Shown in pieces: positions 1,344 through 42,235 of a stretch of 43,501 nt of DNA. The stretch lies in IMG/VR virus record IMGVR_UViG_3300008050_000097; one strand, 5' to 3'. A program made the translations under genes and the position numbers. Positions within the stretch are counted from its first letter, which is position 1. Every line of letters begins with the position of its first letter. Source of the DNA: a virus. Under the pieces are notes generated by a model that ran no database searches, was not told the DNA's origin, and saw nothing but the letters and a program-made list of their open reading frames with translations.

Positions 1344-1376
1344 TTTTCTGCGCTTGTTACTTTAGGTTACAATATA
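1344..1376 (+). promoter_or_regulatory. conserved promoter-like motif TTTTCTGCGC-N13-TTACAATAT
   Basis: Family motif upstream of 1422 gene. Confidence 0.4.
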
Positions 1377-1421
1377 GGTGTAGTGAATGTTGTGTAATTT
1401 CAATACTTAAACAGGAAAACC

Positions 1422-1679
1422 ATGCAAGCTCAGAACGCAAATATCAATCACAATGGTCCAGATTCTCCAGTCATCCAGTTCAACGCAGTTTTTCCGTTCT
1501 TTGGTCCTGAGGAGCGAAGTATGGTGTTCAATTGCACCGAGGCGCAGTTTATGGTAGGCTGGGCAGAATATGCTGAAGGAGCCATGATGCAGGATGCATT
1601 TCACTTTCTCAATGTTGATGAAAGAGAATTCATGATCAGTGGTTGTTACCCTGATGAATTCGAACAGGCAGCACGGTAG
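1422..1679 (+). CDS. hypothetical protein
   Basis: 85-aa ORF with RBS AGGAAAA and upstream promoter-like motif. Confidence 0.5.
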   Translation: MQAQNANINHNGPDSPVIQFNAVFPFFGPEERSMVFNCTEAQFMVGWAEYAEGAMMQDAFHFLNVDEREFMISGCYPDEFEQAAR

Positions 1680-1695
1680 GCTCTAGGAGACTCGC

Positions 1696-2067
1696 ATGAG
1701 CAACAGCGCGCTATTGTTCAACCATTGTTTTGTATGTAGTAAGATGCCATCTTGCACGCTCGTCGCAGAGCAGCCTGTCTGTAAGCGGTGTTGGGCGTGG
1801 GGTGTTTCAATGGGGGAAGTTTCTGGTGAATTTGAGCCAGAACTCTATAGAGGGTCGCCAGCATTGAATTTGTATTCATGCACTGACCACCTAGGTTTGT
1901 TTCCAACAGGTATTGCGTCGATTGTACTTGCGTCTTCTAAGAAAGAAGCACGCTCAATTCTGGATAAAGAATTGAAGAAGTACAGTCTTTATAGCCCAGA
2001 CTATACATTGAAGTTGATCACAGCTGATCAACCTAAGGCAATTGTGCTCTGTGACGGAGACTACTGA
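1696..2067 (+). CDS. hypothetical Zn-ribbon protein
   Basis: N-terminal CxxC...CxxC pairs; first gene of 4-gene overlapping operon. Confidence 0.5.
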   Translation: MSNSALLFNHCFVCSKMPSCTLVAEQPVCKRCWAWGVSMGEVSGEFEPELYRGSPALNLYSCTDHLGLFPTGIASIVLASSKKEARSILDKELKKYSLYSPDYTLKLITADQPKAIVLCDGDY

Positions 2068-3042
2068 ATGGTGAATAAAACAATTGTGCGGATTGTGCAT
2101 GGCTCTCAACTGTATGGCACAAACATTCCATCGTCTGATCTTGACCTTAAGGGAGTCTTTTTCCCAACATTTCGTGAAATGGCTCTCAATCCGAAGCGTT
2201 CTGTTAAGCGTAATGTGAAAGGGACAGCTAGAATCCAGCCTGGTGAACTTGATATGGAGCTCTTTGAGCTTGGAAAGTTCATTGCGCTAGCGCTTGATTC
2301 CCAAACAATGGCTCTTGAGATGTTGTGGGCCCCAGCTGATAAGGTACTTGAAACATCACAACACTGGGAATATCTTGTTGGCACTCGTGAAGAGTTTCTA
2401 AGCAGAGGAATGGAATCGATTGCAGGTTACTGTAAGTCACAGGCCAATAAGTACTGTGTGAAGGGTGCCAGATTTGACGCCATTGTTGAGGCAATCTCAT
2501 TTCTCACAGAATTTGATGGAGAGATGCGAATCAATGAATTCGCATCTGATCCGGCCAACCTAGAGCAGATGGCTGACGTGACTGAACCATACTTCGATAT
2601 TGTAGACATGAGTCATGGAGACGGCAGGTTTCAAGACAAAGCGATTGTAATCAGCAGCCGATATCTCCCCTTCAGCACTACAGTTGAATACAGCCTAGGC
2701 GTTCTTCGAAGCGTTGAAAAAGCTTATGGCAAGCGCACCCGGGCAAGTGCTGGAGGCCAAGATTGGAAAGCACTGATGCATGCCTACAGGGTTGCCGACC
2801 AGGGAATTGAACTTGCGAACACAGCAAATCTTACACTCCCCAGGCCAAATGCTGAGCTGCTTCTCCAAATCAGAAAAGGCGAGCTTCCGTTTGATGAAGT
2901 TGCAGAGATGATCGATGAGCGCCTGAGTGAGCTTGAATATGCAATGACAGCCAGTTCTCTTCCTGCATCGCCAAACAGGCAAGATATCTTTGATCGTGCC
3001 GAGTCGATGTATTTGGAGCACTTTAGGGGAATGCTGAAATGA
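2068..3042 (+). CDS. Pol-beta superfamily nucleotidyltransferase (RlaP/PF10127-like, RNA-repair associated)
   Basis: Motif VHGSQLYGTNIPSSDLDLKGVF = G[SG]-x9-13-DxD NTase signature; 324 aa with C-terminal helical domain; ATGA overlap with upstream gene. Confidence 0.6.
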   Translation: MVNKTIVRIVHGSQLYGTNIPSSDLDLKGVFFPTFREMALNPKRSVKRNVKGTARIQPGELDMELFELGKFIALALDSQTMALEMLWAPADKVLETSQHWEYLVGTREEFLSRGMESIAGYCKSQANKYCVKGARFDAIVEAISFLTEFDGEMRINEFASDPANLEQMADVTEPYFDIVDMSHGDGRFQDKAIVISSRYLPFSTTVEYSLGVLRSVEKAYGKRTRASAGGQDWKALMHAYRVADQGIELANTANLTLPRPNAELLLQIRKGELPFDEVAEMIDERLSELEYAMTASSLPASPNRQDIFDRAESMYLEHFRGMLK

Positions 3043-3632
3043 ACTATCAGGTTAAAGTCGCAGAACCACGTAATACAATCTTAGTTGATGTAGATTGCGT
3101 TTGCGCAGATCTTTATGACGCAATTGCTCTTGAGGCCGCGCTACTTGGATATCCGTTCTCAATGATACGCAGTTATGACGTTCTTAGCCAGTATAATGAA
3201 GATGTGCAAGCAGATCTTCGCGCTGCCATGAAGGAGCCGGGGTTTGCGACAGGGATGAATCCTGTTCATGGAGCGCAAGATGGTGTGAAAGCGCTTCGTA
3301 TGCTGGGGTTGCACGTTCTGTTTGTAACGTCACCGCAAAAGAATGATCATTGGCCAATTGAGCGTATTCATTGGCTGCAGCGCCATTTTGGTGCAAAGTA
3401 TAGTGACGTTATCAATAGTAAGCACAAGAATCTTATTCGCGGCTTGACGCTTATTGATGATCATCCTGATCACGTTGTTAGTTGGTCTCTTGCAAATAGT
3501 GGAAGAGCTGCCATCTGGTATGACGCAGGTTGGACAACCCAACCAATGGTTACTGGTGCTGTGACGCCCAGGGCTGCAAATTGGTCTGACGTAACAGCAG
3601 CAGTTGAGCGAATGCTTAAGAAGCGTGCATGA
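3039..3632 (+). CDS. HAD-family 5'(3')-deoxyribonucleotidase-like protein
   Basis: N-terminal ILVDVDCV (DxDxV) and later LIDDHPD motifs typical of HAD nucleotidases (NT5C-like); ATGA overlap with neighbours. Confidence 0.55.
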   Translation: MNYQVKVAEPRNTILVDVDCVCADLYDAIALEAALLGYPFSMIRSYDVLSQYNEDVQADLRAAMKEPGFATGMNPVHGAQDGVKALRMLGLHVLFVTSPQKNDHWPIERIHWLQRHFGAKYSDVINSKHKNLIRGLTLIDDHPDHVVSWSLANSGRAAIWYDAGWTTQPMVTGAVTPRAANWSDVTAAVERMLKKRA

Positions 3633-3946
3633 GCAAGTTTTTCACGTATATCGTTGATGCCGACGGCACTTACTACACAGGTTGGACAACAGATCTCGAA
3701 CGAAGACTGCGGCAGCACAACGGTTTAATCGCTGGCGGAGCGAAGTACACGCGCGGAAAAGCCTGCAAGCTGATGTGGGCCCAAGAATTGTCTTCACGCT
3801 CTTCAGCAATGAAGTATGAAGCAGCGATCAAGCGTCTTACACACACAGATAAGAAGCTCATTGTTGCAAGCACGCTTTTCGGCATGTCACACTTCATTGA
3901 AAAAGTAAACGAAGCAATCAATAAACCAAGAAAAATGGAGTGCTGA
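3629..3946 (+). CDS. GIY-YIG domain nuclease (small, YhbQ/UPF0213-like)
   Basis: FFTYIV...YYTGWTTDLERRLRQHN = GIY-YIG core; 105 aa. Confidence 0.65.
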   Translation: MSKFFTYIVDADGTYYTGWTTDLERRLRQHNGLIAGGAKYTRGKACKLMWAQELSSRSSAMKYEAAIKRLTHTDKKLIVASTLFGMSHFIEKVNEAINKPRKMEC

Positions 3947-4065
3947 TGGCCTGTATCAAACAGACGCTTGGGAAATGGAGCTTCGTGCCTTTGCTGCGGA
4001 TGAAAAATTGAGCGTTTCTGCACTGGATGAGCCGGACTTCTAAAGAACTGCTTGGCGCGATAGTA

Positions 4066-41157: not shown

Positions 41158-41158
41158 T

Positions 41159-41362
41159 TCACTCTTTCTCATGTGGGCACCGCGATGACGGGCACTTATT
41201 CTTTACACGACGAGCCGCAGCACGCCACTGCAGATCCCAGCCATCTGCCCACCACACAGACAGCGGGTATTTGCCATAAGGGTTCAAGGCACGAGGCTCA
41301 GCATCAATATAAGCCTGCTGGCCCTCTGTGTGTGGTTGGTTGAATCCGCCAATGATCTTCAC
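41159..41362 (-). CDS. hypothetical protein
   Basis: 67-aa Trp-rich ORF. Confidence 0.4.
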   Translation of the reverse strand: MKIIGGFNQPHTEGQQAYIDAEPRALNPYGKYPLSVWWADGWDLQWRAAARRVKNKCPSSRCPHEKE

Positions 41363-41613
41363 AGCAGTTCATCCTTCCCACTACGCATCTCTTCTTCCCA
41401 TGCAAGACGATCTTCGAGATCGCATTCGCCACAGTGCTTATTTCGCGGGTTGATATCATGATGGCAGCACATGCAAATGTCGCTGTAGTAATCGAATGAT
41501 CCGCTGAACTCACCTCCATCGAACTGCTGGTCAGCAGTGATGTGGAGCTCGAGGTTTTCATGCTCTTTGTCTGTCAGGATGTGCTTCTCACAATTTCGAC
41601 ACTGAGTGCTCAT
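41359..41613 (-). CDS. Cys/His-rich zinc-binding protein
   Basis: Start MSTQCRNCEKH ATGA-coupled; CxxC...CMCCHH...CGEC. Confidence 0.4.
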   Translation of the reverse strand: MSTQCRNCEKHILTDKEHENLELHITADQQFDGGEFSGSFDYYSDICMCCHHDINPRNKHCGECDLEDRLAWEEEMRSGKDELL

Positions 41614-41957
41614 GCTGTGACTTCCATTCCGATGAAGGGGGCAATAACGTACATTACAAACCAAACTGTATGGCCTACGCAGACAGCAGCGTATAGCAAA
41701 CTAACTGTGCTGCTAGACCAAATGACTGTAGTCTTATACTCACTTTGCCATGCATAGAGAAACGCGAGGATTGCGACGGCAACAAGCGCAAGCTTAGCAG
41801 CCATGAAAACCAGTGGGCTAATCTCCCAGGCTGCAGCCATAATGGGATTTGTCTCAGTCATTAGCCCTGCAGTCAACCAAAAGGAGGTCATCACAGCATC
41901 GTAGACATTCATGCCTAGGAGAACGACCATCAACTTTTCAAAGGTCTTTCGGCGCAT
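41610..41957 (-). CDS. membrane protein (3-4 TM)
   Basis: Start MRRKTFEK with RBS AAGGAG. Confidence 0.45.
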   Translation of the reverse strand: MRRKTFEKLMVVLLGMNVYDAVMTSFWLTAGLMTETNPIMAAAWEISPLVFMAAKLALVAVAILAFLYAWQSEYKTTVIWSSSTVSLLYAAVCVGHTVWFVMYVIAPFIGMEVTA

Positions 41958-41967
41958 GGCTAACTCC

Positions 41968-42165
41968 TTAGATGCTGGGTGCATCCTGTCGCAGCCGCTG
42001 GCCGCTCATGTTGTAGCGCTCGCCACAGTTGCAATCATTCTGATTGAAGTGGCAGATCAGCTCAGCACCGCAGTCACAGCGGATCTTGAGGCGCTCCTGT
42101 GGGACGTTGCGATTGAACATCGTCGACCAGCGGGTGCCAACAGAAACTTTCCCAATCTTTTCCAT
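41968..42165 (-). CDS. zinc-ribbon small protein
   Basis: Start MEKIGK downstream of conserved promoter; CDCG...CNCG. Confidence 0.45.
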   Translation of the reverse strand: MEKIGKVSVGTRWSTMFNRNVPQERLKIRCDCGAELICHFNQNDCNCGERYNMSGQRLRQDAPSI

Positions 42166-42203
42166 GGTCTCAATGCTCCCTGGTTTAAAAACTCTTCCTA
42201 TAT

Positions 42204-42235
42204 CCATTGTACAACTGCGTGTGCACAACGGAAAT
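42204..42235 (-). promoter_or_regulatory. conserved promoter-like motif (- strand) ATTTCCGTTGT-N11-TGTACAATGG
   Basis: Upstream of 42165 start. Confidence 0.45.

Follow-up and report, generated by a model that had tools for sequence, protein, structure and literature searches.

What is signalled by a short two-part sequence that recurs between the genes of an uncultivated phage, and which protein reads it? The question is raised by IMG/VR virus record IMGVR_UViG_3300008050_000097, of which the whole 43,501-nt stretch, here called the window, was analysed. An earlier note, made from the letters of this DNA, had described a recurrent promoter-like motif with a TTTCCG box upstream of a TATAAT-like box. 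The copies are very probably promoters of a sigma70-type enzyme, and from their sequence they appear to form a class of promoters specific to the phage, in which a foreign box occupies -35. The window forms one end of a metagenomic contig of 175,726 bp (ENA ERZ27249139, k141_178795); the same phage is present in Logan and JGI assemblies, the longest of which measures 179,159 bp. Altogether 86 kb of the genome (49% of the contig, about 125 proteins) were read, and statements on the phage as a whole refer to this part.

Copies were collected with a relaxed scan, in which TTTCCG and TATAAT were each allowed at most one mismatch and the spacer 15–19 bp. Fifteen good copies were found in the window, eight on the plus and seven on the minus strand (Table 1), as had been claimed (at least 15 intergenic copies on both strands). 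They follow the pattern TTTCCG-N17-TA(t/a/c)AAT. The total of relaxed matches was 17, compared with 0.95 ± 1.06 (maximum 5) in 100 random Markov-1 windows, so the motif exceeds a random background as the earlier note had anticipated. The two additional matches, at 17472 and 11729, look like chance and were set aside. With a weight matrix, the 15 sites scored 22.6–44.4 and the next best window position 10.3, and the maxima of 20 random windows were 4.9–16.6; since the matrix was built from the same 15 sites and is partly circular, the gap between the scores counts for more than the scores themselves. The enrichment resides in the bipartite arrangement and not in TTTCCG by itself, which was observed 21 times in the window (19.8 expected). 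At 17 bp upstream of TA[ACT]AAT, TTTCCG occurred 12 times and unrelated hexamers at most once each. Canonical TTGACA-N16-18-TATAAT sites were at chance level (22 vs. 22.0; 18 vs. 17.5).

The spacer measured 17 bp in 35/35 listed sites, which come from three lineages (see below). One further probable copy, at 11445 of sequence L135 (opposite contig end), has an 18-bp spacer. The gap had previously been given as 11–14 nt because of how the boxes were delimited. Taken literally, the pattern of the earlier note matches two sites only, and scans for hexamers plus spacer were used instead. Its example coordinates were correct within a base; the site at 36479 reads GTTTCCGCAT, not ATTTCCGCAT.

Placement was judged against the public gene calls of the source contig. 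All 17 copies tested (the 15 of the window and two just upstream of it) lie between genes and on the strand of the next gene, two of them overlapping the last codons of the upstream gene. Their predicted 5' untranslated regions (5'UTRs) are 9–125 nt long. Genes and GC skew change strand near 25 kb, and the motif copies change likewise. Of 43 gaps of at least 45 bp, 15 hold a copy; no second recurrent motif was seen on inspection of the 28 motif-less gaps, several of which are uncalled small genes or tRNA-like sequences. For the SprT-like gene, the longest open reading frame (ORF; 38017-38622) encloses the promoter at 38585-38613. The public gene call begins at 38559, 19 nt past the predicted start site, and family matches cover the shorter protein only. 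These observations support a promoter (38574..38613) that sets the real SprT-like start at 38559, in line with the redefinition proposed before.

In the aligned sites, the upstream half reads T-35 T-34 T-33 C-32 C-31 G-30 (Y) and is followed by a variable spacer with C preferred at -20. Most copies have T-15 and about half have G-14; TGn proper, at -15/-14, was found in 8/15 window copies and in 15/27 copies of the phage. The -10 hexamer is T-12 A-11 (t/a/c) A-9 A-8 T-7, with T-12, A-11, A-9 and T-7 each in 33/33 sites and A-8 in 32/33; position -10 is the loosest of the hexamer (T21/C7/A5 in 33 sites). The discriminator is A/T-rich with nearly no C. T-1 occurs in 23/33 and A+1 in 28/33 sites, which fits a predicted start at a purine 6–8 nt past the -10. 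After T-1 A+1 comes a purine tract, a third conserved element that had gone unmentioned in the earlier note. A Shine-Dalgarno (SD)-like tetramer was present inside -1..+10 in 22/35 sites, vs. 8.3% of random 11-mers. Most window copies have the tract as AGGAA at +1, and a subclass has AUAAGGA (DNA ATAAGGA). At two sites, 22360 and 9719, the tract doubles as the gene's own SD; most other copies have a separate SD closer to the start codon.

Pairwise identity was 0.94 for the box, 0.89 for the -10, 0.36 for the spacer and 0.25–0.27 for the 40-nt flanks on either side. Conserved boxes joined by unrelated spacers and set in unrelated flanks indicate short signals under selection and not repeat copies. 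No UP-like A/T enrichment was found (AT of -65..-41 0.47 vs. 0.50 for the window), and upstream hairpins are not general: only that at 7434 is strong, and the other copies fold like ordinary sequence. An inverted repeat of TTTCC at -35 and GGAA at +2, bound by a bridging dimer, was also considered; it was rejected, since the GGA tract is displaced by 3 nt from the AGGAA to the ATAAGGA subclass while the box is fixed.

The box itself varied little. Among the 35 sites, TTTCCG was found 28 times, TTTCTG four times, ATTCCG twice and TCTCCG once. TTTCCG agrees with TTGACA at 3/6 positions. T-33, C-32 and G-30, fixed in 35/35 sites, are the positions unlike TTGACA, and the varying positions (-35, -34, -31) are the three common to both. 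This pattern agrees with the earlier judgement that the box is not a sigma70 -35, and it argues for a reader other than ordinary sigma region 4.

Within the 86 kb, 27 copies were counted, or 28 with the 18-bp-spacer copy. Twelve lie on the same contig outside the window: two in the 8 kb adjoining the window start, two ahead of a module with a DnaE-type DNA polymerase III (Pol III) alpha subunit, a ThyA-family enzyme and a dCMP deaminase, and eight at the opposite contig end, where the 18-bp-spacer copy is also located. No close cultured phage was found: megablast gave no match, and the closest cultured-phage proteins in tblastn were only 27–37% identical for RlaP, ligase, major vault protein (MVP) and DnaE. 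Two relatives from different metagenomes carry the motif. In sequence L020, whose MVP-like protein is 73% identical, TTTCCG-N17-TATAAT stands at the orthologous position with an unrelated spacer. In L138/L139 (= GCA_024712125.1; 61.6% GC), which has proteins about 37–53% identical to a paralogous family of the phage (family A1, see below), seven perfect copies lie in 5.8 kb, ahead of nearly every gene. The boxes are thus common to three diverged lineages (this phage, L020, L138), and the spacers differ. GC content also varies strongly within the phage genome (45.5% in the polymerase module, about 50% in most of the window, 58% at 40-42 kb, 53% at the other end), and L138 at its 61.6% still keeps perfect TATAAT and TTTCCG boxes.

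Wider scans added little. What motif and protein-based scans of IMG/VR returned was limited to single hits at chance level and to unrelated phages that lack the motif. In 185,579 species genomes (GTDB), about nine single hits were obtained, equal to chance, with a pattern that also required the phage-type +1 tract; they gave no clue to the host. At the patterns used, the lineage was seen neither in IMG/VR nor in these genomes. The matches listed from a motif scan of JGI metagenomes were mostly chance single hits; the informative one, L040, is another part of the same phage.

Recognition by a sigma70-family holoenzyme is strongly suggested by two features. Invariant A-11 and T-7, a loose -10, frequent TGn and a T/A step seven bases on point to region 2 of a primary-type sigma, and the 17-bp register with the upstream hexamer corresponds to the geometry of such a holoenzyme. 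The promoter reading of the earlier note is upheld by position, strand, spacing, conservation and A-11/T-7; its description of the downstream half as an extended -10 applies to only about half of the copies (8/15 in the window). The genes behind the copies comprise small ORFans, at least 16 tRNA genes, RNA-repair enzymes, ligases, and nucleotide and replication genes, a content that would suit a prereplicative (early/middle) programme.

As a whole, the copies are best explained, in a judgement of moderate confidence, as prereplicative promoters with host-type reading of the -10 and reading of TTTCCG by a phage-directed factor. Region 2 of the sigma in a sigma70-family holoenzyme, in the simplest case the host's primary sigma, would read the -10 hexamer, and TGn would assist in about half of the copies. 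Transcription would start at the A seven bases downstream of the -10. TTTCCG at -35 to -30 would act as the class-specific determinant in place of a canonical -35 hexamer. Its reader would most likely be phage-directed: a phage sigma, or an adaptor that works on sigma region 4 much as MotA/AsiA do in T4. Reading by an unmodified region 4 of the E. coli type is less likely. Copies with TGn and a perfect -10 would be expected to fire at basal level on host polymerase alone, by which the cycle could start. The 5' SD-like purine tract (AGGAA/AUAAGGA) probably acts on the RNA, in ribosome loading or 5'-end protection. The parts of this account are not equally firm. On the sequence evidence, the chances that the TTTCCG box needs a phage-directed factor are evenly balanced. 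Somewhat more tentative is the proposal that this factor is unrelated in sequence to MotA, AsiA and known phage sigmas and reads T-33 C-32 n G-30, with the 5' SD-like tract used at the RNA level.

The nearest model is found in phage T4. T4 middle promoters join a stringent -10, accompanied by TGn in roughly half of them, to a MotA box that replaces the -35 and is read by MotA on AsiA-remodelled sigma (PMC2988021). The copies described here likewise combine a stringent TAtaaT -10, TGn in about half (15/27) and a phage box for the -35, manage without UP elements and stand ahead of prereplicative and DNA-metabolism genes. The MotA box is (a/t)(a/t)(a/t)TGCTTtA, centred at -30 and 12 ± 1 bp from the -10 (PMC2988021). 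In contrast, the box here is TTTCCG(Y), does not match the MotA consensus, occupies -35..-30 at 17 bp from the -10 and is almost fixed in sequence; in MotA boxes many changes are tolerated. The DnaE-type polymerase also indicates that the phage is not T4-like. The comparison with MotA boxes made in the earlier note is therefore useful as a mechanistic lead (stringent -10, TGn half, foreign box) and fails for box sequence and spacing; it is plausible that the class works like a T4 middle promoter without being one.

Other known systems resemble the motif in part. Where a phage relies on host polymerase in its unmodified form, UP elements and TTGACA boxes close to perfect evolve, as in T4 early promoters (PMC2988021). 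The copies share with these the many near-identical promoters ahead of small early ORFs and tRNA genes and conservation at further positions, outside the sigma70 consensus and near +1. They differ from the T4 'uber' arrangement of UP, -35, TGn and -10, which serves unmodified host polymerase, in that UP A/T enrichment is lacking and the hexamer is not TTGACA. Lack of UP enrichment, TGn in 15/27 and a box fixed at non-canonical positions make up a T4 middle profile, which favours a phage-directed factor. Compared with an ordinary sigma70 promoter, -10, spacing and placement agree and a TTGACA-like -35 is missing. As in bacterial extended -10 promoters, TGnTAtAAT is found in 15/27 phage copies; unlike in these, the rest have no TGn and every copy has an upstream box at fixed distance. 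Promoters of phage sigmas (SPO1 gp28, T4 gp55, phiEco32 gp36) are phage-specific, highly stereotyped and rigid in geometry, as here. These sigmas read -10 elements unlike TATAAT, whereas here the -10 follows the consensus of primary sigmas, and a sigma gene was not seen anywhere in the 86 kb. The purine tract recalls 5' SD-like mRNA stabilizers such as the STAB-SD of cryIIIA and the polypurine stabilizer of SP82 early RNA: it lies in the first 10 nt of the predicted transcript (22/35) and is often distant from the real SD. Unlike in these stabilizers, it is simply the gene's own SD in a few copies (22360, 9719).

Several points weigh against a phage-directed reader. Neither a sigma, MotA (MotA_activ, MotCF), AsiA nor a helix-turn-helix (HTH) protein was detected among the approximately 125 proteins (precomputed Pfam and PHROGs matches), and the search for a phage-encoded DNA-binding activator proposed in the earlier note has thus produced no candidate in the 86 kb. 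In the part read, no second, host-type promoter class was seen from which such a factor could be expressed first. The box hardly varies, whereas MotA boxes tolerate many deviations. It also lies exactly at the -35 position, at the canonical 17-bp spacing, and shares T-35, T-34 and C-31 with TTGACA, so that direct reading by sigma region 4 would fit as well. A host sigma with an unusual -35 preference is conceivable. Region 4 of the host's primary sigma would then prefer TTTCCG, and the copies would be plain early promoters of unmodified holoenzyme. Such a host-specific -35, which would agree with a canonical spacer (18 bp in one probable copy), with the sole visible promoter class across an early-looking region and with the missing phage factor, is nevertheless considered unlikely. 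A TTGACA-like -35 with a TATAAT-type -10 is found across nearly all studied phyla, we know of no consensus like TTTCCG, and a literature search for TTTCCG with TATAAT returned nothing relevant. Chance-level hits in the species genomes, with the +1 tract in the pattern, also speak against it, as does the box itself, which varies only where it agrees with TTGACA and is fixed where it differs.

More remote, and improbable in our judgement, are pure extended -10 promoters in which TTTCCG does not recruit polymerase and is an operator for a phage or host regulator that shuts off or times the class. A perfect -10 with TGn, as in about half of the copies, can work without -35 contact (PMC2988021), and a short invariant box over -35 is a typical repressor position. 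TGn at -15/-14 is, however, absent from 12/27 phage copies and 7/7 L138 copies, which would need an upstream contact. An 8-bp asymmetric site without a partner half-site would be unusual for a repressor, and the strict 17-bp distance from the -10 suggests that a single complex recognizes both elements. A non-sigma phage RNA polymerase (RNAP), either single-subunit and T7-like or multisubunit and virion-packaged, is very improbable: conservation does reach +5, as in T7-type promoters, and the genome read covers about half of the contig, but the motif has two parts, separated by a 17-bp spacer of variable sequence (identity 0.36), the downstream half is a textbook TATAAT with invariant A-11 and T-7, and the 86 kb hold no RNAP gene. 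T7-like promoters form a contiguous block of about 20 bp (-17 to +6). Effectively refuted is a dispersed repeat, a mobile regulatory cassette like the promoter-early stem-loops (PeSLs) by which genes are shuffled in T4-type phages, or a chance pattern. Many copies do flank small ORFan genes and paralogues; flanks and spacer are unrelated (identity 0.25–0.36), a general upstream hairpin is absent (a stem-loop lies upstream only at 7434, -32.8 kcal/mol), enrichment is far beyond chance and all copies are co-oriented with genes.

Phage-specific promoter classes reveal how a virus captures the host transcription machinery. To our knowledge, sigma appropriation by T4 provides the sole -35-replacing box understood in depth. 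New phage genomes often yield promoter motifs of this general kind; the present one would be a second, unrelated box with the same overall logic, in three diverged phage lineages known only from metagenomes. Its regularity, its conservation in three lineages and its pattern of invariant positions offer a clean entry to a possibly new polymerase-retargeting factor, for which DNA bait with TTTCCG-N17-TATAAT and a short list of early ORFans are available. If the more tentative proposal of an unrelated factor holds, an uncultivated lineage with a DnaE-type polymerase, a genome of about 176 kb and many tRNAs has evolved its own retargeting of host RNAP. The motif also corrects gene starts (SprT-like) and defines about 28 transcription units.

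Table 1. Predicted promoters in the window. The 5' base of the box is the first coordinate on the plus strand and the last on the minus strand.
Predicted promoter	Coordinates	Strand	Remarks
TTTCTG-N17-TACAAT, weaker match	1345..1384	+	weight matrix score 23.0; precedes gene 1422-1679
TTTCCG-N17-TACAAT	4067..4106	+	heads operon 4122-7358 including MVP-like gene; promoter at orthologous position in L020
TTTCTG-N17-TAAAAT	7434..7473	+	strong hairpin upstream at about 7375-7409
TTTCCG-N17-TATAAT	9719..9758	+	+1 AGGAGG = SD of gene 9765-10070; tRNA genes downstream
TCTCCG-N17-TATAAT	11677..11716	+	before gene 11743-12102 and tRNAs 12375-12745
TTTCCG-N17-TGTTATAAT, +1 AGGAA	13660..13699	+	precedes gene 13739-14149 and tRNAs
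TTTCCG-N17-TACAAT, +1 AGGAA	18615..18654	+	precedes 18664-18798 and tRNAs 18806-20357
TTTCCG-N17-TGTTATAAT	22360..22399	+	best weight matrix score, 44.4; +1 AGGAA = SD of gene 22404-22664; 5'UTR 9 nt
TTTCCG-N17-TACAAT, +1 AGGAA	42195..42234	-	gene 41968-42165
TTTCCG-N17-TGATAAAAT, +1 AGGAA	39329..39368	-	gene 39105-39299
TTTCCG-N17-TGGTATAAT, +1 AGGAA	38574..38613	-	within longest SprT-like ORF 38017-38622
TTTCCG-N17-TATAAT	37096..37135	-	gene 36766-37056
TTTCCG-N17-TGATAAAAT	36440..36479	-	gene 36022-36420, paralogous family A1
TTTCCG-N17-TGGTAAAAT, +1 AGGAA	33358..33397	-	gene 33173-33343
TTTCCG-N17-TATAAT	29620..29659	-	box overlaps last codons of 29649-29867; drives 29132-29557 (family A1)

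The hairpin ahead of promoter 7434 (AATGCCCTGCATCC...GGATGCAGGGCATT, plus strand) directly follows the MVP-like gene. The folding energy quoted above was obtained for a 76-nt segment that includes it. The hairpin lacks a T-run; it could serve as a terminator or mark a processing site. Within ORF 8923-9207, a long-range inverted repeat at 9047-9128 (AATATTTCCG ... CGGAAATATT) contains the sole TTTCCG occurrences that face each other; no -10 is associated with them.

Family A1 consists of lineage-specific proteins of 130–144 aa with the N-terminus MAKxxRWNPxSxVNxNHLxGML and an Ala-rich C-terminus. Six paralogues were found in the phage (window 36022-36420 and 29132-29557, both on the minus strand; L135 6116-6505, 6763-7170, 7394-7828 and 10001-10396) and four in L138 (at 467, 1071, 3596 and 4242), each with its own TTTCCG promoter. 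The family was considered as a candidate DNA-binding factor and set aside, as no informative Pfam or PDB match was obtained. In the 5'UTRs of family A1 (L135 6056-10003, L138 418-4244), a promoter subclass has the conserved leader 5'-AUAAGGACGG and conserved ACCG at -22..-19 of the spacer. The AUAAGGACGG leader is followed by a hairpin, the stem sequence of which varies among copies (single-sequence minimum free energy -13 to -27 kcal/mol); for a consensus fold, the alignment was too poor to show covariation.

The dense tRNA cluster of the window (10266-20357, plus strand) contains 15 genes according to ARAGORN. Rfam adds tRNAs at 11170-11239 (45 bits) and 13005-13098 (37 bits, 94 nt) and a borderline match at 11330-11406 (28.2 bits; gathering score 29). 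In the gap at 15449-15621, tRNA-like halves lie about 90 nt apart, possibly an interrupted tRNA. Many anticodons of the cluster read A/T-ending codons. Beside the cluster stands an RNA-repair set of two T4 Rnl1-type RNA ligases, a P-loop kinase (AAA_33/PNK-like), an HD phosphohydrolase and metallophosphatases (window 26284-27465 and 27467-28021, minus strand, 18905-19483 and 21111-21968, plus strand; L010 2231-3475), which looks like a tRNA-repair module against anticodon nucleases.

The DnaE-type Pol III alpha (sequence L151 673-4248, plus strand; 1191 aa) shares no more than 31% identity with any phage of the collection. Nucleotide genes include the ThyA-family enzyme, two dCMP-deaminase-like genes and a 5'-deoxynucleotidase (L151 6462-7451 and 7814-8128; window 32614-32940, minus strand, and 3039-3632, plus strand). 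Sets of this type, with DnaE, ThyA, dCMP deaminase and 5'-deoxynucleotidase, are often linked to modified bases in phage DNA.

The MVP-like ORF (window 4716-7358, plus strand; 880 aa) encodes a full-length major vault protein homologue (Pfam MVP_shoulder, Vault_3, Band_7). It is 44–48% identical over 96–99% of its length to more than 100 proteins, many of them from metagenome-assembled genomes of Myxococcales, Nannocystaceae and Kofleriaceae, and 37–39% identical to ORFs of three 'huge phage' records (LR756500, LR756501, LR756503). For a phage, a protein of the vault shell is unusual, and it may hint at the host.

In the contig end region, L136 3023-3850 (plus strand) encodes a 275-aa protein with a ribosomal L7/L12 C-terminal domain (PF00542); the gene lies directly downstream of the TTTCCG promoter at L135 8860, and the call on the ENA contig is on the opposite strand. 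Four tandem paralogous genes of 238–435 aa are located outside the window at L135 1571-5604 (minus strand; contig 164.8-168.8 kb). Their products contain protein-kinase-like motifs (GxGxxG...ALKI...HxxN...DxG) and have weak PHROG matches to 'kinase' and the T7 gp0.7-type kinase. Kinases of the T7 gp0.7 type inhibit host transcription, and the products of these tandem genes could modify the host polymerase.

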